Translations under genes and position numbers: made by a program
Shown here: positions 3,716 to 41,956 of the stretch, piece after piece
Layout: the number at the start of each line of letters is the position of its first letter
Position numbering within the stretch: position 1 is the first letter of the stretch
The notes under the pieces: model-generated
What the model saw: only the letters and a program-made list of their open reading frames with translations
Database searches by the model: none
Told to the model about the DNA's origin: nothing
Origin: Eubacteriales bacterium
GTDB taxonomy: Bacteria; Bacillota; Clostridia; Lachnospirales; Lachnospiraceae
Length of the DNA: 64,000 nt
Reading direction: 5' to 3'
NCBI GenBank assembly: GCA_030537195.1
Contig: JAUNOK010000002.1
Location: 21,632 to 85,631 of the forward strand

Positions 3716-3771
3716 CTAACAGCTAGGGGACAGCCCCATCTACGAAATTCAAACAAGAGGTTTCATCAATT

Positions 3772-28517: not shown

Positions 28518-29756
28518 ATGAGTAAATAAAAGAAGAAACTTCCCTTAGCAGCACAGATATTTATTTCGTTAATCCTGGCAATTATCGTTGGTCTGCTGAT
28601 TCAGAAATATGCTGCATTTGCAGAAACTTACATCAAACCGTTTGGTACAATCTTTCTTAATCTTATTAAATTTATAGTTGGACCTATCGTACTGTTTTCA
28701 ATCATGTGCGGAATAATTTCCATGAAGGACATTAAGAAAGTCGGTTCAATCGGCTTAAAAACAGTTGTTTACTATATGTGTACAACGGCATTTGCAATTA
28801 CATTTGGACTGATTGGCGGTAATTTATTTAAAGGCCTTTTCCCTGTTGTCACAACAACAGACCTCGCCTATGAAACATCATCAAAAATGTCTATTATGGA
28901 CACAATTGTTAATATTTTTCCATCAAACTTTCTTGCACCTATAGCAGAATCCAACATGCTTCAGGTCATTGTTATGGCTCTGTTATTAGGTTTTGCAATC
29001 ATACTTATCGGAGATGAAAAGAATCAGGGCATTGTAAAGGCCTGCAACCGCCTGAATGATGTATTCATGAAATGTATGGAGATGATACTAAAACTATCTC
29101 CAATAGGTGTATTTTGTCTTCTGTGTCCGGTTGTTGCAAGTAATGGAGCAGTAATTATCGGCTCGCTGGCAATGGTTCTGCTTACTGCGTATGTCTGCTA
29201 TATTGTACACGGTCTTGTAGTATATTCTATAGCCGTAAAAACTGTTGGCGGAACAAGCCCTGTAAAATTCTTTAAAGAAATGCTACCAGCAATTATGTTT
29301 GCCTTCTCAAGTGCATCTTCAGTAGGAACTCTTCCTATTAATATGGAATGTGTTGAGAAAGTAGGAGCGAAAAAAGAAATATCATCCTTCGTCCTCCCAC
29401 TTGGAGCTACTATTAATATGGATGGAACAGCAATTTATCAGGGTGTGTGTGCAATATTTATCGCATCATGCTATGGAATTAATCTGACATTTTCACAGAT
29501 GATAACGATTATTCTAACTGCAACTCTTGCCTCAATAGGGACAGCCGGCGTTCCTGGTGCAGGAATGGTTATGCTTGCAATGGTACTTACATCTGTTGGA
29601 CTTCCAGTTGATGGTATTGCCCTGGTTGCCGGAATTGACCGTATATTCGATATGGGACGTACTGTTGTCAATATTACTGGTGACGCAAGCTGCTGTGTTG
29701 TAGTAACCAATCTTGAGCGCAAACGTGACATTAGAAAAGCTAAGAAAATGCAATAA
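28518..29756 (+). pseudogene. Dicarboxylate/amino acid:cation symporter (DAACS/GltP family) interrupted by an in-frame TAA at codon 4
   Basis: RBS ggaga + ATG 28518, then AGT AAA TAA (stop 28527-28529). The frame then stays open (KKKLPLAAQIFISLILAII...) into track ORF 28704..29756. The first usable downstream ATG (28704) would delete TM1. Confidence 0.5.
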
Positions 29757-30887: not shown

Positions 30888-31079
30888 ATGAGCGATATAT
30901 TAAGAATCGAAGCAAAGAAATATGTAGAAGAATCAATAGTTATATCTTCCAGAATTCCAAAGGACATGTTGCAAGATATAGATTTTGTCGCAAAGAAATC
31001 GGGAAGAACACGAAACGAGGTTGTAACTATGTTTTTAGAATATTCATTAAAACATACAGAAATAATTAACAAACAGTAA
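30888..31079 (+). CDS. Ribbon-helix-helix (CopG/Arc-type) DNA-binding protein, first gene of the TIR cassette
   Basis: RIPKDMLQDIDFVAKKSGRTRNEVVTMFLEYSL has the RHH beta-strand + two-helix pattern. RBS aagagg lies 7 nt upstream. Confidence 0.6.
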   Translation: MSDILRIEAKKYVEESIVISSRIPKDMLQDIDFVAKKSGRTRNEVVTMFLEYSLKHTEIINKQ

Positions 31080-31099: not shown

Positions 31100-32902
31100 A
31101 TGGGAAAGTTTGCGATTGAATGTCCGGTTTGCGGAAAATATGCGGAAGCAAGTACAGGATTTTTTTCCAAAAAGAAAATTGAATGTGCATGTGGAAATGT
31201 AATTAATGTTAGAACTGATAAGTATGCATCAAGAAAATGCGTACATTGTGGCAATCAGGTAATTTTCGATCAAACGAAGGGGGAAGATGCTTTATGTCCG
31301 GTTTGCCATGCAAAGATAAATACCATGGCAGACAATCAAAAGACACAGGAGTTTTCATGCGGACAGTGTGGCATTCGTTTGACAACGGTTACAAGTGCAA
31401 AAACATATGTGTGTCCGATATGCGATTTCGAAAATGATATTCAGGAACGCTTTATGTCAGAAAAAATTAAGAATGATGGTATGGCAAGCATCATAAAGTA
31501 TGAGGGAGATAATTCGACATTCATATGGAAGCATCCAATTGAGGATTTCAATTATGGTTCTCAGCTCATTGTTCATGAGAGTCAGGAAGCAATCTTCTTT
31601 AAGGATGGACAGGCATTAGATTTATTTGGACCAGGTCGTTATACATTAGAGACACAACAACTTCCATTGTTGGAAAAGACATATAGTTTGCCAACTGATA
31701 CCCAGAGAACATTTCATTCAGAGGTTTATTTTATAAATAAAACAGTTCAGATGGCTATTAAGTGGGGAACTCCAGATAAGGTTAGATTCATTGACCCGTT
31801 AACAGGAACACCCCTTGCTCTTGGAGCATCTGGTGAGATGAATATTCAAGTTTCTAATGCAAGAAAGCTTTTAATTAAGTTGGTTGGAACTATGAAAGGG
31901 ATTTCATGGGAAGAAGATCCCGAATTTACGAAATCCTTACAGTCATCATTCCGTCCGTTGATTGTAAACGCGGTAAAGACAAACCTTTCAGCAGTAATAA
32001 AAAATGAAGCAATCGATATTTTAGAGATAGATGAAAAACTGGATATAATCTCTGACAATTTACGTGAAAAAATATTGCCGGGATTAGAAGAATATGGTCT
32101 TACAGTACCTCAGTTTTATGTAACAAATATTGTTTTGCCAGAAGATGACCCTAACTTTAAGAGAATTAGGGAATTACATACAATCACACTTCAGACAAGA
32201 GTAATACAAGCGGAAGCAACCGTAAAAACAGTGCAGGCTCAGGCTCAGACTCAATACAGAATGGCAGAGGAGCAGAGCAAAGCCGCAATTGAAGCTGCTC
32301 ATAGAGAGGCTGAATTGCAACGTCAGACAACCGAAACTGAAATTGCGAAGATGAAAGCAGAGAGGGAGCTTATTGCGGCACAGGCAGCAGCACAGGCGAA
32401 ACGCATGGATGGTATTACTGAAGCTGAGATTATGCAGGCAAAGGGATACAATCAAAAGGATGTCCTTCAGGTAGATGTACAGAAGGCATATGCGGAAGCT
32501 ATCGGAAATATGGGACCAGCTATTTCCTCTGGTGGTGGAAGCGGCATAGTAGGTGATATGCTTGGCTTGGGGGTTGGAATGGCAGCTATGAATGCAGTAG
32601 CACCGCAGGTAGGCGGAATGATAAGTGGAATGGGAAACCAGATGAATCAGGCTATGAATAATGGTACAACTTTGCCATCATTTGCTGAACAGCAGACTAT
32701 GAATACAAATATAACTAGGGCAGTCAATGCTTCGAACACATGGGATTGTAAATGTGGCAATAGAGGAGTGATTGGCAATTTCTGTAATAACTGCGGAGCT
32801 AAGAAACCAGAGCCAGTATCAGCAACATGGGATTGTTCTTGTGGAAATAAGGGAATAATAGGAAACTTCTGCAATAACTGTGGTGCGAAGAGAGGAGAAT
32901 AA
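31100..32902 (+). CDS. Multi-zinc-ribbon protein fused to an SPFH/Band-7 domain (COG4260, B. subtilis YdjI-like) with coiled coil and tandem C-terminal zinc ribbons
   Basis: Five N-terminal CxxC...CxC/CxxC pairs. SPFH core (IIKYEGDNSTFIWKHPIEDFNYGSQLIVHESQEAIFF...AIKWGTP). QAQAQ coiled coil. Two repeats WDCxCGNxGxIGNFCNNCGAK. Confidence 0.75.
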   Translation: MGKFAIECPVCGKYAEASTGFFSKKKIECACGNVINVRTDKYASRKCVHCGNQVIFDQTKGEDALCPVCHAKINTMADNQKTQEFSCGQCGIRLTTVTSAKTYVCPICDFENDIQERFMSEKIKNDGMASIIKYEGDNSTFIWKHPIEDFNYGSQLIVHESQEAIFFKDGQALDLFGPGRYTLETQQLPLLEKTYSLPTDTQRTFHSEVYFINKTVQMAIKWGTPDKVRFIDPLTGTPLALGASGEMNIQVSNARKLLIKLVGTMKGISWEEDPEFTKSLQSSFRPLIVNAVKTNLSAVIKNEAIDILEIDEKLDIISDNLREKILPGLEEYGLTVPQFYVTNIVLPEDDPNFKRIRELHTITLQTRVIQAEATVKTVQAQAQTQYRMAEEQSKAAIEAAHREAELQRQTTETEIAKMKAERELIAAQAAAQAKRMDGITEAEIMQAKGYNQKDVLQVDVQKAYAEAIGNMGPAISSGGGSGIVGDMLGLGVGMAAMNAVAPQVGGMISGMGNQMNQAMNNGTTLPSFAEQQTMNTNITRAVNASNTWDCKCGNRGVIGNFCNNCGAKKPEPVSATWDCSCGNKGIIGNFCNNCGAKRGE

Positions 32903-32904
32903 AT

Positions 32905-33594
32905 ATGGGGCAAAATAATATTAGAGGATACATTGTTGATGCAATATTATTTGTTGTGTTTAGCGTCATTGCTTTTGCGGCACCATTTAAAATGACTGGA
33001 GTATTTTGGTTAGGATATATATTTGGTGTAATTGCAATAGTGTCACAAATATATTTTATAAAGATATCTTTTTTGAATGGTAAAGATGTAAAGAGTAAGT
33101 TTTATGGATTTCCTATAGCAAAGATAGGAGTGTTCTATCTTGGAATACAAGTTGGTTTGAGTTTGGCAGAATTTATTACTGCTGGATTCCTGCCAGTCTG
33201 GATAGCACTTATTGTTAATACGCTTATGATAGCATTTGCTGCGATTGGTACAATAGCTGCAGATGTAATGCGTAATGAAATTGTAAAGCAGGATGTTCAG
33301 ATAAAAATGAATGTAAAAAATATCCGTGCATTACAGTCTCAGACGGTTTCGTTTGTAGATATGTGCCAAGATGCGGATATAAAGAAGCAGTTGCAAGGGT
33401 TGGCAGATGATTTTAAATATAGTGATCCGGTATCATCGGAAGATACTCAAGAAATGGAAACAGAACTGAAATTCCTTGTAAACGAAATCCAGCGAGCACT
33501 TGTAGATGGGGATATGAAATCTGTTGAAAGCTTTTGTGTACGTGTGAAAGCTAGCTTGGCAGAGAGAAACAGAATTTGCAAGTTGGCGAAGTAG
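32905..33594 (+). CDS. Membrane protein with four N-terminal TM helices and ~100-aa cytoplasmic helical tail, translationally coupled to the SPFH gene
   Basis: Hydrophobic segments at about residues 10-30, 35-55, 70-95, 100-125. Stop/start are 2 nt from the upstream gene. No family recognised. Confidence 0.55.
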   Translation: MGQNNIRGYIVDAILFVVFSVIAFAAPFKMTGVFWLGYIFGVIAIVSQIYFIKISFLNGKDVKSKFYGFPIAKIGVFYLGIQVGLSLAEFITAGFLPVWIALIVNTLMIAFAAIGTIAADVMRNEIVKQDVQIKMNVKNIRALQSQTVSFVDMCQDADIKKQLQGLADDFKYSDPVSSEDTQEMETELKFLVNEIQRALVDGDMKSVESFCVRVKASLAERNRICKLAK

Positions 33595-33612: not shown

Positions 33613-34300
33613 AAAAATGCACTTGAAGAGATTAATAGTTTTTATAATGATGATCTGGTATGTAAATTAAAAAAGGCAGAGTATTTTGATAAAATTGCAG
33701 GAAGCAGAAAACTGGCAAAAGTGTATTACGATATCGAAAATAAAGTGGCCTTTTCCGGTGCAATAAATGAAAATATAACCATAATGCTTGATGAGGCAAA
33801 TAATAAGCAAAAAGAGGTATTTAACATACAGGCAGCAGATACAGGAAGTTTTTCAGAAGTTAAGGATATAATTGCGGTGATAGGGATTACAAAAGAGGCA
33901 GGAAGCTCTCTTATGAATGTTTTGCTATTTGCTGCAACTGCAATCGGAATTATCGGCACTGACGTTGTGAGGGATGAAGTACAGCATAAGGAAGTGAAAA
34001 TTGAGATAAACACAAGTAGCATGATGAAAATGCGAAATATGGTTGAAACATTGGTGGAAAGTGCTCAGATTCAGAAGCCAGAAGGGCTGTGCAGGAATTG
34101 GCAGCGGAGTTTAAGTTTAGTGATCCGGTGAGTAATGATGGTTTAAAAATTATTGAGATAGAAATAGAAAATTCAATGGAATAACTTCAAAAATGTGTTT
34201 TTAGTGACAATACAGAAGAAGTTATAGAAATGACCAAGAGGACAGTTGCATTGTTAATTGAAAGAAATCAGCAATGTAAACAGTATAAGAAAATATAATG
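33613..34300 (+). pseudogene. Decayed tandem partial duplicate of the 3' two-thirds of gene 32905..33594 (frameshifts and stops)
   Basis: LLFAATAIGIIGTDVVRDEVQHKEVKIEIN parallels LMIAFAAIGTIAADVMRNEIVKQDVQIKMN. After a frameshift, AVQELAAEFKFSDPVS parallels LQGLADDFKYSDPVS. The final segment ALLIERNQQCKQYKK parallels ASLAERNRICKLAK. Confidence 0.55.
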
Positions 34301-34309
34301 AGGTTACTT

Positions 34310-34951
34310 ATGGATAAAGGAATTGTTAGAGAAGTCCTTGAGAGAGGAAAGTACGAGATAGTATTAGAAAAAAGATTTAAAAAATACGCTTGGCGGTTCA
34401 AATTAAGTAATGGAACATCAGTGTACTGTGGAGATAATGAAAAAGTATGGACACAGGGAAAAGCTGGAGTCGATGTAAAACGGTTTCTTGATTTGAATTT
34501 ACCTATCATGTCTAACAATAAAGTTTTTATAGTATATGGGCATGATACAGCTGCGAAAGATGAACTTGTTCACATGCTGCACACTTGGGGAATTGATGCT
34601 TTAGCTATTGATGCCTTGCCTACACAGGGACGTACTATTATCGAACAATTGGAGCATTATATTCCGCAGACAAATTATGGGGTAGTATTGGCTACACCAG
34701 ATGACATTGCTTGTTCTAAAGAGAATCGCACTGTGATGCAGTGCAGGGCACGACAAAATGTTGTACTAGAATTAGGAATGCTTTTGTCAAAGTTAGGAAG
34801 GTCTCGCGTTGCGATTTTGATGAAGGAATGTGAAAATTTTGAAATTCCATCAGATATTGATGGAATTCTTTATATTAGATTTTCCAATTCTGTAACAGAA
34901 GCGGAGAACAGTTTAAAAAGAGAATTGAATTCACATGGATATAATATTTAG
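34310..34951 (+). CDS. TIR-like nucleotide-binding domain protein (COG4271 / CAP12-PycTIR-type TIR-like) with ~70-aa N-terminal domain of unknown function
   Basis: KVFIVYGHD...GRTIIEQLE...GVVLATPDD...ARQNVVLELGMLLSKLGRSRVAILMK...IPSDIDGILYI matches the conserved pattern of this TIR-like family. Start at ATG 34310 after RBS tgagg. Confidence 0.7.
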   Translation: MDKGIVREVLERGKYEIVLEKRFKKYAWRFKLSNGTSVYCGDNEKVWTQGKAGVDVKRFLDLNLPIMSNNKVFIVYGHDTAAKDELVHMLHTWGIDALAIDALPTQGRTIIEQLEHYIPQTNYGVVLATPDDIACSKENRTVMQCRARQNVVLELGMLLSKLGRSRVAILMKECENFEIPSDIDGILYIRFSNSVTEAENSLKRELNSHGYNI

Positions 34952-34975: not shown

Positions 34976-37351
34976 ATGACAATCTTTAGATGCAAAATGT
35001 GTGGCGGTGATTTGGAAATTGCAGAAGGAATTTCTTTCTGCACCTGTGAGTTTTGTGGTACAAAGCAGACAATTCCAACTGTAAAAGATGAAGATCTGCA
35101 GACATTGTTTAACAGGGCTAATGTTCTGCGTATGAAGTCTGAGTTTGATAAGGCGGCAGAGATATATGAAAAGATTCTGTTAAAAAATGAAAGTGAAGCA
35201 GAGGCATACTGGGGATTGATACTCTGTAAGTACGGAATAGAGTATGTGGAGGATCCGGCTACATTCAAGCGCGTGCCTACTTGTCATAGAGCTTCTTATG
35301 ATCCAGTGGTGTCTGATGAAGATTATAAGAGTGCGCTAAATTATGCTGATGCGGTTCAGCGAAACATTTATAAACAGCAAGCTGCTGAAATTGACACAAT
35401 ACAGAAAGGCATTTTAGCACTTGCGCAAAAGGAAGATCCCTACGATATTTTTATCTGCTACAAAGAAACAGATGAATTAGGACAGAGAACACAGGACAGT
35501 GCGATTGCCAATGATATCTATCATCAGTTGACTATAGAAGGCTTTAAGGTGTTCTATGCGGCAATTACGCTGGAAGATAAGCTTGGCACAGAGTATGAGC
35601 CATATATCTTTTCTGCCTTAAATACAGCAAAAGTTATGCTTTCTATAGGCACAAAACCGGAATACTTCAATGCTGTATGGGTTAAAAACGAGTGGTCCAG
35701 ATTCTTGAAAATCATGAAAAAGGATCGTAGTAAACTTCTTATTCCTTGCTATCGCGAAATGGATCCTTATGAGCTTCCAGAGGAGTTCGCCCATCTGCAG
35801 GCACAAGATATGAGTAAGATCGGATTTATCAATGACATTGTGCGTGGTATCAAGAAGGTGATCACCAAAGATTCGCCTAAAACACAGAGTCAGGAAACTG
35901 TAGTTGTACAGCAGGGCGGTTCCGGAACAACCGTAAATGCGCAAATAAAGCGTGGTAATATGGCTCTTGAGGATTGCGATTGGGATAGGGCAGAAAGCTT
36001 TTTTGAAGAGGCGTTAAATCTTGATCCAGAATGTGCAGAGGCGTATCTTGGTCTTTATATGGTAGAACAAGAATTGCCATATATGTTGGATGTACAAGAC
36101 TCATATATATATGATGATGATTATTTTACACATCATCGCTATTGGAAACGCGTGAAACAGTATGCTACAGGAAACCTTGCTAAAACACTAAATAAATGGG
36201 ATCGCATGCGAAGTGCACGACTTCAAAGAGAAAAGGATGATGAGTTTAGAAAAAAGGATGCTGAGCGCAGAGAAGCGGAACAGAAAAAGAAGATAGCTGA
36301 AGATGATAGAAAGAAAAAACTGGAAGTGATTAGACCATTGCAAGAGCAATTGCGAGAAATTGCTGAAGAGGAACGGGAAGAGCTGGAAAAGTTGAATGCG
36401 AATGCAAAAGCGGCATTGGAAATCCTTCAGAATGCGAAGTCGCATGAAAAAACAGAGGTTCAGGAATTTCACAAGTTGGAAGAATTGATTTCATCAAAAA
36501 AAGCAGAGCTATTAGAAATGGGATTTTTAAAGCGAAAAGAAAAGAAAGAATTAAAATCACAAATTGAAAACCTTAGTGAAAATTTATTGAAAGCAAAAAA
36601 TAAAGTTTCCGAAGCAGACGCTAGTATTATTCGATTGAAAAATCAAGCAGAGAAAGCCGAGAAACATATTAAGGAATACAGTGAAAAAGTTGTGAATGGT
36701 AAAAAGAAAAAGATTTTGGAGCAGATATTCAGAATTTTAGAGCTAGATTTTGACGGAGATAAGGTTAAATTTGGTTCTTATAAGAAAGGAGAGGAGGAAA
36801 AAGAACCAATTGAATGGCTTGTATTGGAAATATCGGATAAAGGGATTTTTTTGCTTGCTAAACATATAATTGATACAAAAAAATACCATAATAAGATGGA
36901 TGGCTCTATAACATGGGAGACATGTGACTTGCGGAAGTGGTTGAATAGTGAATTTCTGAATTCAGCATTTGATGATAGTCAGCGAATGATGATTGCACAT
37001 ACGAAGTGTCATACTGATGATAATCCGATGTATGAAACCGAAGGAGGAAATGATACGAAAGATCAGATTTTTCTTCTTAGTATAGATGAAGTAGAGAAGT
37101 ATTTTCCTTCAGATAGTGATATTGAAGAAAAGTTAGAAAACTACGGTTTTGGTAGAAGCCGGTGGTGGCTGCGCTCCCCTGGCGAAAGTAGCAATTACGC
37201 TGCGGGTGTTTATGATGACGGCTCGGTCGACTACGATGGCTGCGAGGTCAACTACCAGCTTAAAAGCGGCTGGGAGGAAGACTATAGTGACCCGGTTTAC
37301 TATATTTATGATTGTGTGCGTCCCGCTTTGTGGATTAATCTGGAATCATGA
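34976..37351 (+). CDS. 791-aa multidomain protein: N-terminal zinc ribbon, TPR-like repeats, TIR domain, long charged coiled coil, C-terminal DUF6273-like domain
   Basis: CKMCGG...CTCEFCG. TIR core DIFICYKETDE...KVFYAAITLE...SALNTAKVMLSIGT...WVKNEWSRF. KEKKELK-type charged helix. C-terminus IEWLVLE...TWETCDLRKWLNSEFLNSAF...WWLRSPG...CVRPALWINL typical of DUF6273. RBS gagggga lies upstream. Confidence 0.75.
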   Translation: MTIFRCKMCGGDLEIAEGISFCTCEFCGTKQTIPTVKDEDLQTLFNRANVLRMKSEFDKAAEIYEKILLKNESEAEAYWGLILCKYGIEYVEDPATFKRVPTCHRASYDPVVSDEDYKSALNYADAVQRNIYKQQAAEIDTIQKGILALAQKEDPYDIFICYKETDELGQRTQDSAIANDIYHQLTIEGFKVFYAAITLEDKLGTEYEPYIFSALNTAKVMLSIGTKPEYFNAVWVKNEWSRFLKIMKKDRSKLLIPCYREMDPYELPEEFAHLQAQDMSKIGFINDIVRGIKKVITKDSPKTQSQETVVVQQGGSGTTVNAQIKRGNMALEDCDWDRAESFFEEALNLDPECAEAYLGLYMVEQELPYMLDVQDSYIYDDDYFTHHRYWKRVKQYATGNLAKTLNKWDRMRSARLQREKDDEFRKKDAERREAEQKKKIAEDDRKKKLEVIRPLQEQLREIAEEEREELEKLNANAKAALEILQNAKSHEKTEVQEFHKLEELISSKKAELLEMGFLKRKEKKELKSQIENLSENLLKAKNKVSEADASIIRLKNQAEKAEKHIKEYSEKVVNGKKKKILEQIFRILELDFDGDKVKFGSYKKGEEEKEPIEWLVLEISDKGIFLLAKHIIDTKKYHNKMDGSITWETCDLRKWLNSEFLNSAFDDSQRMMIAHTKCHTDDNPMYETEGGNDTKDQIFLLSIDEVEKYFPSDSDIEEKLENYGFGRSRWWLRSPGESSNYAAGVYDDGSVDYDGCEVNYQLKSGWEEDYSDPVYYIYDCVRPALWINLES

Positions 37352-38669
37352 TTCTTTATATCTGAAATCAACCACTCAGCGCCATAGGTGCAATCCTTCT
37401 TCCAAGGGGAAGGTGGCACGCGGTAGCGTGACGGATGGGGAACTTTAAGCCACCGACAGGCGGTCAAGTGAAGTTTTTACTATGTGTTCTCCATTATCCT
37501 AAATATGTGATATCAGGGGATATTAATTTAATTTGTGATGAGGTAGGTAATTTGAGTAATTATGTATGGTGTGAATAGTCATGGAACGAAGATAAAGAAT
37601 TAAAGGTCGTAAACAAGGCTAAAGATTTGTGTTCCTATGTTATGAATGTAGAAAAGAAATCTCCCAAAGTATTATCGTTATACATTTGTGAGCCATTTAC
37701 AGAATTTATCATTGTCGGTGATTGAAACATATTATCCGGGCAAATGATGTTTTGCCCAAAAGGGTGATACCATCACGATGGAGAACGATGCATTTTACCT
37801 AAACAGTACGAACTGATAGAGCCATCCAGATAATGGATTGTCAGAACTTGCTTGGTGCTTGGATGAAAAGTGAGAGGAAGAGATTACAACCGTAGGGCTT
37901 AATCAGGGAATTTGATTGAATGGGTAGTCAGCTGGTGGTGGTTGTAATCCCTGTTTTTATATTGACAGGTTGCAAAACGAATTTACCTTTCAAAACAGTA
38001 AAACACAGATAAGTAGTTGCCTTTAACATGAAGCTGTGAGAATATAATTATAGTTATTTGTTTTATATTTTAATTCCTATGTAGGAGTTTGGTTGATTTC
38101 TCTTTAAGATGTTAAGAGAAAACGGAAGAGTCGTGTCTTCAGAGTTATTTGTAATATTCATATAAATGATTGTGAAGACACGGCATGAGCTGCCGCGAGC
38201 AGTAACCGGTATGCCAGTGGGCAAAAATGGACGTGAAGTGTGAAAACACAAATAAAATGGTGGAGAGGGCAGTAAGATGAGTTGCGAATCATCGAGCTGC
38301 TTTTTTCGTTGCAAAGTTTCTAAATGTCGGAACATAAATATATCCCCGACAAACCAATAACTTCTCCCCGCTAAAATTTCTCAAAAGCTGAAATCTGATA
38401 TAATAATTTTAGTTAGATAAAAATGGAGTAACGAATGATTGAAAAAGTTGTATTCATGAACATGTCTGCAGACCATAACGGAAGATGGAATAATTGCAAA
38501 AATACAATAAAAAGTCCTGTCTATGTATATCAAGCAACAGGAGCAATGAAAGCGTTTCAAAACTACAGAACAGCAATTAATGAATAACAGAACCACGCAA
38601 AATGTATATTTTAATCACTTCGCTAAATCACCGTTTAACGAAGTGATTACCACATGACATAGTCTACTA

Positions 38670-39470: not shown

Positions 39471-39627
39471 AATTCCTCCTCTTCCCGATATGTTTTCTTG
39501 ATAATATCAACATATATTTTTCTAATTAAAAAGTCAAGAAGTACTAAACATTACCCTCAATTTGATTTACACCTATATGCCATCATGCTATAATAATTTT
39601 ATATTATTTATTGTAAAGGCAGACATC

Positions 39628-40581
39628 ATGAACAAAACATTAGATGCAACACATTTAAAAATTATAGCAATTATTTCTATGGTTATTGACCATTTTGCAT
39701 GGGGATTCTTAGATTTCTATTCGTGGCAGGGTCAGGTTCTTCATGTATGCGGCAGACTCACAATACCAATCATGTGTTTCTTTATTGCACAGGGATACAG
39801 CAAGACATCAAACCTTCACCGCTATATTGGACGAATGATTATATTCTGGCTTTTGTCCATCGTACCTTTTTATCTATTTTTTCATGAAGAATACGGATTC
39901 AGACAGAATATTATATTCGATCTGTTACTAGGCTTACTTTTCCTTGTCTGTCTTAATAGCAGGAAACTTGCTGTATGGCACAAGGTTTTAATCAGTATAT
40001 TGTTATTCACAGTATCTCTCGTCATTGGCGGCTGGCCGGTTCTTCCTATGGTTTACATAGCAATCTTTTATTTTATTAAGAACTGGAAAAAACAGGTGAC
40101 ATGGTTCTGCATCGCTACTGTATCACTAGTTTTATTCATGATGGCTGCAATCAGCCTGAATCAGATATATCATTTTTCTCACTATAACTGGATATGGTAC
40201 GAAAAAACATATTTCCTTGGATTCATGCTTGCTCTTCCATTGCTTGCCAGATATAACGGTCAGAAAGGCCGTTATCCTATTGGAAAATATTTCTTTTACT
40301 GCTTTTATCCAATACATTTTCTGGTTTTGTATGCATTTAAACAAATGTATCATATATACTCAGGCTATACAGTATATGTAGCTTTACAGGTTTTGACACT
40401 TATACTTGCAATGTATGTTATATATAAAATGAATGTTTCAACAACGTCCATCCAAAGCACAGACTGGCAGTATTCTTTTCGGATGTGCAACAATTATTTA
40501 CATGTATGGATTTCTTCTGGAAGTGACAACTACTACTCTCAGTGGTGTTTATCAGGCTGTAAAAGTCGAATATTTTGGTGA
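39628..40581 (+). CDS. TraX-family membrane protein (C-terminal ~50 aa probably not genuine)
   Basis: LKIIAIISMVIDHFAW is the TraX signature. The 3' tail overlaps the next ORF by 149 nt in another frame and looks like out-of-frame translation (Cys/Trp-rich). Confidence 0.55.
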   Translation: MNKTLDATHLKIIAIISMVIDHFAWGFLDFYSWQGQVLHVCGRLTIPIMCFFIAQGYSKTSNLHRYIGRMIIFWLLSIVPFYLFFHEEYGFRQNIIFDLLLGLLFLVCLNSRKLAVWHKVLISILLFTVSLVIGGWPVLPMVYIAIFYFIKNWKKQVTWFCIATVSLVLFMMAAISLNQIYHFSHYNWIWYEKTYFLGFMLALPLLARYNGQKGRYPIGKYFFYCFYPIHFLVLYAFKQMYHIYSGYTVYVALQVLTLILAMYVIYKMNVSTTSIQSTDWQYSFRMCNNYLHVWISSGSDNYYSQWCLSGCKSRIFW

Positions 40582-41956
40582 ATGCTTCGTTGTTGTAGGA
40601 TTTACATTGTTTTTATCAGAATTCTGTAAAATCCGTATATCCAAATGGCTGTATTTTGTAGAACATATTGTTTCATTTGTGATTATGTATCTTATATTTA
40701 CAACACAGCAGAATCATATATTTTACAGAGATATGCGTATAGTTAATTCTGCGCCACACTCACGTCTTGTTCTTGAATATGGCCCGGGTTTTTATTTCTT
40801 CTTCTGCTATCTTGGTATATTGACTATTGGAACTATCTTGGTGTTTATTAAATCAATGAAAAAAACTACAGCTCTTGGAAAAGCAAGAATCAGACTGATT
40901 ATATATGCCCTTGCCTGTCCATGGATTCCGCTTATTATCCGTGCATCCGGCATTACAGGAGGATATGAAGTATCATTTCTTGGAGTTGCTGCAAGCTCAA
41001 TACTGATTATGACAGCACTTGTAAAATATGGCTATCTTGATTCTGTACAACTTGCCGGAACTAATGCCCTTTTCAATGCAGATGAAGGCCTTATGGTAAT
41101 TGATACTAATAACCAGATTCTTTACTGTAATAAGCGCTTGAACGAATGGTTCCCTGCTGCTGAAAAATACAGTGATGCAACTGACTATATTAATATTAAC
41201 GATGTTCAGCATGGCAATTTCCTAAGGGTCGAATTAGGCGGCTGCATATGTGACATTATTTCAGAGCCAATAATAGAGATGAATGAAATTCAGGGTTATC
41301 TTATTCGTATTATAGACATGACTGAACATTACCAACAGCTTGAACTCGCTGAGAAATCCGCACATATTGATGCATTAACTGGTCTTTGGGATCGTGAATT
41401 ATTCAAACTTACAATGATGGACTATCTTAAGAATAATGGTAATGGAACAATGTTCATGATGGATATTGATAATTTCAAAGGAATTAATGATAACCACGGT
41501 CATGATACCGGAGACAAGGTTCTTATAACGCTTGGTAAGACTCTTACACAAATATGCAATGAAACACACCTGTGCTGTAGAATCGGCGGCGATGAATTTG
41601 GATTATTTCTGAAAGATATTACTACATCAGATGAAATCAGAGAGTACTCTGAGACAATAAGTAACCTATATAAGAAGCTTATTTCAGAAACTGATTCTTA
41701 TGTTAATTCATCTATATCCATCGGTGGAACAATAATTAACAACGAATCTCATAATATAACCATTGATTCATTTGAAGAAATATACTGTAAAGCTGATGAA
41801 GCTATGTATGCTGCTAAGAAAGGCGGTAAAGACAGATATTTTGTGAATAAACTATCAAAAATAAAAATCCGTAACTGCTATTATGTTAAATGCATAGCAG
41901 CTACGGATTTTTATTTTTCAATTATTTCTGATGTGATTTCTTCTCTCTTTTTATAA
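40433..41956 (+). CDS. Membrane-sensor diguanylate cyclase (GGDEF domain)
   Basis: About 6 TM helices at the N-terminus. GGDEF core ALTGLWDRE...MFMMDIDNFKGINDNHGHDTGD...RIGGDEFGLFL. Confidence 0.75.
   Translation: MFQQRPSKAQTGSILFGCATIIYMYGFLLEVTTTTLSGVYQAVKVEYFGECFVVVGFTLFLSEFCKIRISKWLYFVEHIVSFVIMYLIFTTQQNHIFYRDMRIVNSAPHSRLVLEYGPGFYFFFCYLGILTIGTILVFIKSMKKTTALGKARIRLIIYALACPWIPLIIRASGITGGYEVSFLGVAASSILIMTALVKYGYLDSVQLAGTNALFNADEGLMVIDTNNQILYCNKRLNEWFPAAEKYSDATDYININDVQHGNFLRVELGGCICDIISEPIIEMNEIQGYLIRIIDMTEHYQQLELAEKSAHIDALTGLWDRELFKLTMMDYLKNNGNGTMFMMDIDNFKGINDNHGHDTGDKVLITLGKTLTQICNETHLCCRIGGDEFGLFLKDITTSDEIREYSETISNLYKKLISETDSYVNSSISIGGTIINNESHNITIDSFEEIYCKADEAMYAAKKGGKDRYFVNKLSKIKIRNCYYVKCIAATDFYFSIISDVISSLFL

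Follow-up and report, generated by a model that had tools for sequence, protein, structure and literature searches.

What would a soluble SPFH-domain protein that carries zinc ribbons at both ends be doing beside two genes for TIR-domain proteins? The question is raised by a gene cluster of an Eubacteriales bacterium of the Lachnospiraceae (GenBank assembly GCA_030537195.1, contig JAUNOK010000002.1, positions 21,632 to 85,631), which we analysed with its surroundings as a single stretch of 64,000 nt, referred to here as the window; all coordinates are window positions. The comparison with related loci leads us to an answer to which we assign a probability of roughly 45%, namely that the SPFH protein, anchored by a four-helix transmembrane (TM) partner, would serve as a membrane platform for TIR effectors in a defence or sensing module. 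This module would consist of a ribbon-helix-helix (RHH) protein, one to four proteins of zinc ribbon (ZnR)-TPR-TIR organisation, the SPFH protein and its membrane partner. Three genes of the cluster carry the argument.

31100-32902, plus strand: SPFH scaffold protein of the Band_7_1, YdjI/SamI class, soluble, 600 aa, with zinc-ribbon arrays at both ends.
32905-33594, plus strand: TM4, the 229-aa four-TM partner, with four TM helices and a cytosolic four-helix bundle (AlphaFold2 (AF2) model with a predicted local distance difference test (pLDDT) score of 78; hydropathy).
34976-37351, plus strand: TIR791, the 791-aa TIR protein, organised as ZnR-TPR-TIR_2-TPR-coiled coil-DUF6273 (Pfam), from the family that is conserved as partner of the SPFH protein.

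The association of the SPFH and TIR genes was examined from both sides. The SPFH-anchored set comprises 31 loci of species-representative genomes that were fetched via the SPFH protein, in which all open reading frames (ORFs) were then clustered and the TIR partner was scored by tblastn. The TIR-anchored set was drawn from metagenome contigs scanned with a profile built from the N-terminal 420 aa of 20 TIR relatives, and consists of the best 80 of at least 561 confirmed matches. Only three families recur in the SPFH-anchored loci, namely SPFH itself, the relatives of TIR791 (24 of the 31 loci, the window included) and TM4 (17 loci), while the other genes around SPFH change from locus to locus and the flanks are not conserved. 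Among the seven loci that lack a TIR partner, full flanks are present only in L019, to which L031, a 31%-identical outlier, is to be added. Reciprocally, an SPFH gene is present in 58 of the 80 metagenome loci, and only one of the other 22 extends for at least 5 kb on both sides, nearly all of these exceptions being cut contigs. The linkage is kept despite shuffling of the gene order, which may be RHH-TIR-...-SPFH-TM4, SPFH-TM4-TIR or SPFH-TIR, and in many loci the TIR gene is multiplied to two to four paralogues. Hosts include Lachnospiraceae, Oscillospiraceae, Ruminococcus, Erysipelotrichaceae and Anaerotignum, and almost all occurrences of the module are in Clostridia of the gut and rumen. 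An earlier note on this DNA, made from the sequence of the window, had described the co-location of an envelope-stress-type scaffold with TIR genes as atypical; the co-location stands, and the word atypical has to be qualified, as gene neighbourhoods across these genomes indicate that a TIR neighbour is the rule for this SPFH clade and not an oddity. We regard the linkage, read from genome comparison, as a solid lead.

The module is essentially chromosomal, with the SPFH gene found on a plasmid in one case. Among 2.9 million viral contigs there were seven SPFH and two TIR matches, and both TIR contigs also carry SPFH. A phage origin was considered and rejected, given one weak phage match and few matches on viral contigs. 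More distant relatives bear on which part of the TIR proteins associates with SPFH. On the Butyrivibrio fibrisolvens plasmid pNP21 (L032, 6700-10053) a distant SPFH gene is followed by one for a TIR-less ZnR-TPR protein (hhalign probability 93.6%, E 2e-7), and the same arrangement is seen in Bacteroides finegoldii (L033, 5935-8546; hhalign 67.5%, a weaker case), where the SPFH protein has a C-terminal GYF_2 domain in place of the ribbons. These TIR-less proteins beside SPFH suggest the ZnR-TPR head as the SPFH-associated part, and SPFH may have been paired with ZnR-TPR before TIR was acquired. A second ZnR-headed type, in which a ZnR is joined to a repetitive GTVxVEG stretch, TPR and an RCC1 propeller with no TIR, was also observed (L002:9830-11479, L005:9900-11516), and in some loci with three-ribbon SPFH proteins it is encoded between the SPFH and TM4 genes.

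Other genes enter the interior of the module. Fifty-five same-strand genes are intercalated within it at other loci, among them Shedu SduA (E 1.6e-99), AbiH, a ThsB-like TIR protein, PDC-S15, PDC-S31, PDC-S66 and an IS1595 transposase, along with FRG, DUF2971 and YaaC-like proteins. SIR2-like genes are intercalated in about eight loci, and two families of small Rx4H (HEPN-like) proteins of ~154 and ~221 aa, with no Pfam match, are encoded directly upstream of SPFH in about 15 loci. The SIR2-like inserts lie between the TM4 or SPFH gene and the TIR genes (L022:5012-6061, L036:4171-5409, L051, L052, L094, L107 and others), and examples of the Rx4H proteins, with the motifs RRNPLIH and RNALAH, are L009:2948-3409, L010:6797-7258, L103:5655-6116 and L080:6936-7598. 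The same kind of slot is filled in the window by the second TIR gene.

34298-34951, plus strand: TIR217, the 217-aa TIR protein, of Cap12/PycTIR type and equivalent to the PADLOC candidate single-gene system PDC-S35 (PF10137, PADLOC).

In the screen of window proteins with PADLOC v2 models, TIR217 matched the PDC-S35 model (PDLC05006) with E 2.5e-68 over aa 5-217 (profile positions 1-226 of 231). It also matches PF10137 with E 1e-33 and Cap12 in the PDB (7un8) with E 2.8e-6, the RxNVVxExG motif being aligned. No homologue of TIR217 was found in the other 111 loci, which gives it the look of an insertion specific to this locus; the interior of the module behaves like a defence-gene hotspot. It would be a short step to suppose that the SPFH and TIR genes are themselves mere landmarks of such an integration hotspot and share no mechanism. 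The very diverse single-gene systems and the IS1595 transposase between core genes would suit that supposition, as would the decayed TM4 duplicate described below and the inserted PDC-S35 gene in the window. We nevertheless find it very improbable, because landmarks are normally housekeeping genes at fixed positions, whereas this module moves as a whole, and its flanks are unrelated from locus to locus.

The SPFH protein itself can be divided into five regions.

31121-31423, plus strand: three N-terminal four-Cys zinc ribbons (aa 8-31, 47-69 and 87-108).
31541-32146, plus strand: SPFH/Band 7 core (aa 148-349; Pfam Band_7_1, PF13421).
32150-32506, plus strand: long alpha-helical, coiled-coil-type region (aa ~351-469; AF2 secondary structure).
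32507-32734, plus strand: Gly/Met/Ala-rich low-complexity linker (aa ~470-545; pLDDT ~30 and no secondary structure in the AF2 model).
32738-32898, plus strand: two tandem C-terminal zinc ribbons, WDCxCGNxGxIGNFCNNCGAK (aa 547-568 and 576-597; direct repeat D1).

The frame at 31100-32902 is uninterrupted over its 600 aa and closes with TAA at 32900-32902. Its full length is covered (100%) at 65-84% identity by more than 120 database proteins, which come from metagenomes of gut and rumen and from Lachnospiraceae metagenome-assembled genomes, so that the frame is a single gene and neither a frameshift artefact nor two genes; the named homologues are called "SPFH domain-containing protein" or, in Joint Genome Institute (JGI) entries, "membrane protease subunit (stomatin/prohibitin family)". 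The core matches PF13421 over profile positions 9-198 of 211 (E 3.1e-36; 125.4 bits, where 24 is the cut-off), includes the AIKWGTP motif at aa 219-225, and gives a weak match below cut-off to Band_7 (PF01145). Beyond the core, helices are predicted at aa 351-436, 441-447 and 452-469 with local pLDDT values of 70-80; the first contains the QAQAQ stretch (~aa 378-382), and a weak FloT-scaffold match covers aa 359-454. No hydrophobic segment reaches a mean Kyte-Doolittle value of >=1.6 in a 19-residue window, and a PDB sequence search with the protein gave no meaningful match.

The two ribbon arrays differ in their standing within the family. The N-terminal array is formed by C8/C11, C29/C31, C47/C50, C66/C69, C87/C90 and C105/C108, which are five CxxC pairs and one CxC pair, and all 12 Cys are invariant in an alignment of 39 sequences (mean column identity 73%) that was also used for the AF2 model. 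Its matches to Pfam are to generic zinc ribbons, all of them below threshold. Homologues have three, one or none of these ribbons, with alignments that begin at aa ~80 (one) or ~128 (none), and by this comparison the triplet is an optional add-on and the sole added part of the SPFH protein. The C-terminal ribbons are encoded by a 74-nt direct repeat in tandem, with copies 76% identical, and every homologue examined has two to five of them, of the WDCxCG or the CPxCG...FCxECG type, behind a linker that differs in length and sequence. A comparison of C-terminal ribbon number with TIR paralogue number gave rho values of -0.25 and 0.27, which are not usable because the search pattern missed CxxC-type ribbons.

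Most of what the earlier note had read from the letters agrees with these results: one polypeptide free of frame errors and with full-length relatives, an SPFH core of the YdjI class, at least five N-terminal CxxC pairs, the AIKWGTP motif, the QAQAQ coiled coil and both C-terminal ribbons, a four-TM gene starting 2 nt past the SPFH stop, and the nearby TIR genes at 34298-34951 and 34976-37351, which are real. Its proposal that the ribbons record a fusion with YdjG is not supported at either end. YdjI of Bacillus subtilis has no TM segment of its own, and has a low-complexity stretch and a C-terminal zinc ribbon (PMC8581546). The tail seen here, linker and ribbon alike, is therefore the normal family tail in duplicated form, and the annotation logic is corrected accordingly, from a fusion to a family trait. 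YdjG has two zinc ribbons, an NTF2-like domain and a TM segment; the three N-terminal ribbons abut the SPFH core directly, with neither an NTF2-like or other globular domain nor a TM segment, and the ZnR protein of a YdjGHI-like Bacteroides locus has no significant similarity to them (E 0.12). A sigma-W-type promoter (TGAAAC-N16-CGTA), which the note had proposed to look for upstream, is also missing there, the sole match in the window lying 27 kb off on the minus strand at 3741-3765.

The kinship with YdjI/SamI suggests a second reading, in which the SPFH protein and TM4 would stabilise or repair the membrane as an envelope-stress or maintenance scaffold, and the TIR genes would merely share a variable island with them. 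Several features are of the kind that this reading predicts, including the shared PF13421 domain, the combination of a soluble SPFH protein with an operon-encoded membrane protein as in YdjGHI, and the distant Bacteroides homologues, the neighbours of which are housekeeping genes, a TM protein and a small protein of ZnR-TPR type, with no TIR. On the other side, no pspA, YdjG-type or TPM/YdjH-type gene is found among the window neighbours or recurs in the 31 related loci, no sigma-W-like promoter accompanies the gene, and the linkage to TIR holds in both directions and is kept across five host groups even where the genes have changed their order. We therefore consider a purely envelope-directed role unlikely.

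A soluble SPFH protein raises the matter of how the membrane would be reached. Soluble YdjI needs operon-encoded membrane proteins for its recruitment to the membrane, where it scaffolds a partner (PMC8581546; bioRxiv 10.64898/2026.02.06.704340). The ATG of TM4 at 32905 lies 2 nt past the SPFH stop, with its Shine-Dalgarno sequence GAGAGGAG inside the SPFH 3' end, and TM4 is probably a translationally coupled partner and the membrane anchor of the SPFH protein. The TM4 gene adjoins SPFH in 14 of the 31 genome loci and 47 of 55 metagenome loci. Where a genome locus has no TM4, the TIR partner itself has a TM helix in seven of eight cases (manual count), which fits a soluble SPFH protein in need of some membrane partner.

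TM4 is represented by 701 relatives in databases, of near-fixed length (~229 aa), none of which has a convincing Pfam family; one gives a chance-level match to PF00760. TM4 itself has no Pfam match, TPM_phosphatase included, and a Foldseek search of the PDB with its AF2 model returned nothing below E 0.18. Identification of TM4 as YdjH (TPM) or NfeD was rejected on the basis of the missing Pfam match, the all-helical model and the missing PDB fold match, and hhalign found no relationship between the TM4 profile and the TM neighbour in Bacteroides (probability 0.9%). TM4 is thus, as judged from profiles and the predicted model, a protein family of its own. Its alignment shows invariant cytosolic residues F170 and D174-P175-V176 and a C-terminal ERNRxCKLxK motif. 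A second copy has decayed in the window.

33721-34184, plus strand: decayed, frameshifted remnant of a second TM4 copy, comprising the fourth TM helix and the cytosolic domain.

The remnant matches TM4 in BLASTP with E 3e-8 and holds a relic of the motif, FKxSDPVS, in another frame; at the DNA level it corresponds to repeat D2 (33392-33431/34090-34129, 40 nt, 80% identity).

The conservation of TM4 permits a different assignment of roles, in which a NAD-derived signal made by the TIR protein would gate TM4, through its invariant FKYSDPV, as a membrane-disrupting effector in Thoeris-like signalling, and the SPFH protein would restrain or organise TM4. Defence systems that work by signalling, such as CBASS, Pycsar and type II Thoeris, commonly use small multi-TM effectors, and the invariant cytosolic residues, high conservation and tight coupling of TM4 to SPFH would be in keeping with such a function. 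Yet TM4 is absent from some loci that keep SPFH and TIR, and its cytosolic domain matches no known nucleotide-sensing fold in Pfam or the PDB. A decayed second copy would be odd for a lethal effector, a point that is not decisive. An effector role for TM4 accordingly seems to us improbable.

The TIR partner was next to be defined. In TIR791 the TIR domain (aa 158-280) matches PF13676 TIR_2 with E 8e-11 and 43 bits against a cut-off of 28, and TIR_2 is above cut-off in nine homologues as well. All relatives have in common a head of ~420 aa, composed of a CKMCGG...CxxCG ribbon, TPR, TIR_2 and TPR, and differ in their tails, which end in DUF6273 or an RCC1-like propeller. A WVxNE motif is found at ~aa 235-239, with W235, V236, N238 and E239 invariant in 20 TIR791 homologues, and its Glu may be, by resemblance of the motif and not by structural superposition, the counterpart of the catalytic Glu of SARM1 or bacterial TIR domains. 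Between head and tail, KKxKR followed by a strong TM helix (Kyte-Doolittle 2.5-3.0) is seen in 98 of 125 complete TIR relatives. This arrangement predicts that the TIR domain is cytoplasmic and that the DUF6273 or RCC1 tail faces outward, in a receptor-like topology. The TM-bearing relatives are those of L008, L009, L015, L018, L026-L029 and most of L034-L113, with the TM helix of L018:9597-12422 at aa 620-638; one relative, L016:7289-10489, has a multi-pass membrane domain instead of the single TM helix.

DUF6273 has a C-type-lectin-like fold and is known in phage receptor-binding proteins diversified by diversity-generating retroelements (DGRs) and in a secreted immunoglobulin A (IgA) protease. 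As DUF6273 is a common DGR target, diversification of this kind was considered for the TIR tails; it was rejected, since a direct repeat resembling a template repeat is missing within 30-40 kb and no reverse transcriptase recurs in related loci. The predicted exposure of C-lectin-like or RCC1 domains by most TIR partners would also serve non-immune sensing, with TIR receptors for host, dietary or neighbour-cell ligands on the SPFH platform and a metabolic or signalling output. The near-restriction of the module to gut and rumen Clostridia, and the occurrence of DUF6273 in the IgA protease and in phage receptor-binding proteins, are compatible with such a surface function. We hold it to be an outside chance, in view of the repeated insertion of defence genes, the variable flanks and multiplied TIR paralogues as usually seen in conflict systems, the RHH gene at the start, and the plasmid occurrence alongside toxin-antitoxin and restriction-modification genes.

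The preferred reading, a membrane platform for TIR effectors, builds on what the analysis shows: how the domains are arranged, a reciprocal linkage of SPFH and TIR genes, flanks that are not conserved, a membrane topology by prediction, and defence genes inserted in the module. The alternatives each cover part of the data, but either account less well for a linkage that is both reciprocal and mobile or do not explain the defence context. We infer a possible sequence of events with an anti-phage outcome. The SPFH protein would oligomerise at the inner membrane face, as SPFH proteins generally do, held there by TM4, by the TM helices of most TIR partners, or by both. Its flexible, multivalent zinc-ribbon arrays would dock the ZnR-TPR head of the TIR proteins, which would thereby be clustered and yet restrained. 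Binding of a ligand to the variable C-terminal domain (C-lectin-like DUF6273 or RCC1), or alternatively a perturbation of the membrane, may act as the trigger, with the sensing domain being extracellular in most homologues and cytosolic in TIR791. Once triggered, the TIR domains would assemble and cleave NAD+, by way of depletion or a signal, leading to growth arrest or abortive infection. The full version of this proposal, in which RHH/ZnR-TPR-TIR(xN)/SPFH/TM4 would be an immune or sensing system of gut Clostridia with a flotillin-like platform, transmembrane TIR receptors with C-lectin-like or RCC1 ectodomains, NAD+ cleavage inside the cell and docking through the ribbons, is more doubtful than the platform as such and is put forward tentatively; if true, it would amount to a bacterial counterpart of receptor-plus-raft TIR signalling.

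A number of points weigh against the platform. TIR791 has a charged coiled coil in place of the TM helix, and the copy in the window therefore falls outside the receptor topology; TM calls throughout come from a simple hydropathy scan. A minority of loci do without TM4, which is therefore not obligatory. The metagenome loci include near-duplicates, and counts from them are not of independent events. The AF2 model of the 600-aa protein is poor (mean pLDDT 56), with the SPFH core unmodelled and pLDDT values of 24-48 at aa 126-268. In PADLOC the SPFH protein has no match, and TM4 and TIR791 have matches at noise level only (QatB/NsnC E 0.006-0.024; LmuB E 0.02), so that SPFH and TIR791 have no direct tie to a validated defence system. 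The defence genes within the module could merely mark an integration hotspot. Surface sensing of a non-immune kind would agree just as well with DUF6273, which is also present in secreted proteins of gut bacteria and in receptor-binding proteins of phages.

Neither the assignment to the SPFH family nor the ribbon tail is new, and databases already list thousands of relatives under the name "SPFH domain-containing protein". An SPFH-TIR defence system is not described in the literature searched (open-access papers and bioRxiv), and in that literature and PADLOC v2 the SPFH-TIR module, the TM4 family and the receptor-like topology of most TIR partners appear to be undescribed. SPFH proteins are ubiquitous and their bacterial clients mostly unknown; comparative genomics here names large TIR proteins as a candidate client class, for one clade abundant in the microbiota of the human gut and of the rumen. 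Should the link prove functional, a membrane-scaffold component would be added to the architectures of TIR-based immunity, some bacterial TIR proteins would sense ligands outside the cell, and a tractable system would be at hand for what SPFH platforms do to their clients.

The cluster as a whole is a ~8.4-kb plus-strand block with a PNPOx-like gene on one side and a CN-hydrolase gene on the other, surrounded by housekeeping genes. It opens with a small gene behind a 660-bp intergenic region.

30888-31079, plus strand: small ribbon-helix-helix (Arc/CopG/BrnA-like) protein, the first gene of the cluster (weak Pfam and NCBIfam matches).

The ORF is listed from TTG 30885, and ATG 30888 is preceded by a Shine-Dalgarno sequence, AAAGAGGAAAG. 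Its matches are weak (Pfam Arc, E 0.005; NCBIfam BrnA/aCcr1), and homologues of 41-60% identity stand first in the cluster in eight genome loci and many metagenome loci; by family resemblance the protein is probably a transcriptional regulator. Between 32000 and 38000 the GC skew is +0.26 to +0.30 and the AT skew is positive, with values of ~0.1 or below zero in the flanks and a similar G+C content. The 1.3 kb past the TIR791 gene (37352-38669) contain no ORF of >90 aa, no tRNA and no Rfam match, and terminator-like hairpins lie at 37379-37391 (plus) and 37760-37735 (minus). Scans of the window for tRNAs and Rfam families gave no matches, and a promoter and terminator scan of it did not rise above the shuffled expectation. 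Upstream of the cluster, the sodium:dicarboxylate symporter ORF at 28704-29756 (plus) starts at profile position 51 of 387, and its 5' end may be truncated or frameshifted; downstream, the TraX-like ORF at 39562-40581 and the 7TM-GGDEF ORF at 40433-41956 (plus) overlap by ~150 nt, probably through a mis-assigned start or a frameshift.

Among characterised systems, YdjI (SamI) of the pspA-ydjGHI (samGHI) operon is the closest in architecture, sharing with the window protein the PF13421 domain, the absence of a TM segment, a coiled coil, a low-complexity stretch, a C-terminal ribbon and a co-encoded membrane protein. The window protein differs in its three extra N-terminal ribbons and in the multiplication of its C-terminal ribbons (two to five in the family). 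Its cluster has no pspA, no YdjG and no YdjH (TPM domain), the membrane partner is an unrelated four-TM protein, and a TIR protein takes the place that PspA has in B. subtilis as the conserved client-type neighbour. SPFH oligomers that corral a membrane client are also found in pairs of SPFH with the stomatin operon partner NfeD, in HflK/C-FtsH and in flotillin-type scaffolds, with which the window cluster shares the tight coupling of an SPFH gene to a membrane-protein gene. Those proteins (FloA/FloT, for example, among the flotillins) have a TM helix or hairpin of their own, whereas the window protein has none, and NfeD has an OB-fold C-domain, whereas TM4 is all-helical in the AF2 model and has no NfeD match.

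With Thoeris ThsB/ThsA, Cap12 TIR-STING, PycTIR and PDC-S35 the module has in common a TIR domain with a conserved Glu-containing motif, and TIR217 is a bona fide member of the PDC-S35/Cap12 type. Variable sensor-like tails, the expansion of paralogues and neighbouring defence genes are further likenesses to TIR anti-phage systems. Unlike those systems, the module has no ThsA, cyclase or SAVED/STING partner here, its conserved partner being the SPFH scaffold; for Thoeris in particular, PADLOC gave no ThsB-model match for TIR791 and no ThsA in the window. Toll-like receptors offer an analogy only: most TIR partners are predicted to have a ligand-binding domain outside the cell, one membrane-spanning helix and a TIR domain in the cytoplasm. 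The best PDB TIR match of the TIR family profile is the TIR domain of TLR15/TLR2 (E 0.004, weak). In contrast to Toll-like receptors, the module's TIR proteins have no leucine-rich-repeat ectodomain, the orientation is reversed with the TIR domain N-terminal, and TIR791 is without a TM helix; the analogy implies no whole-protein homology.

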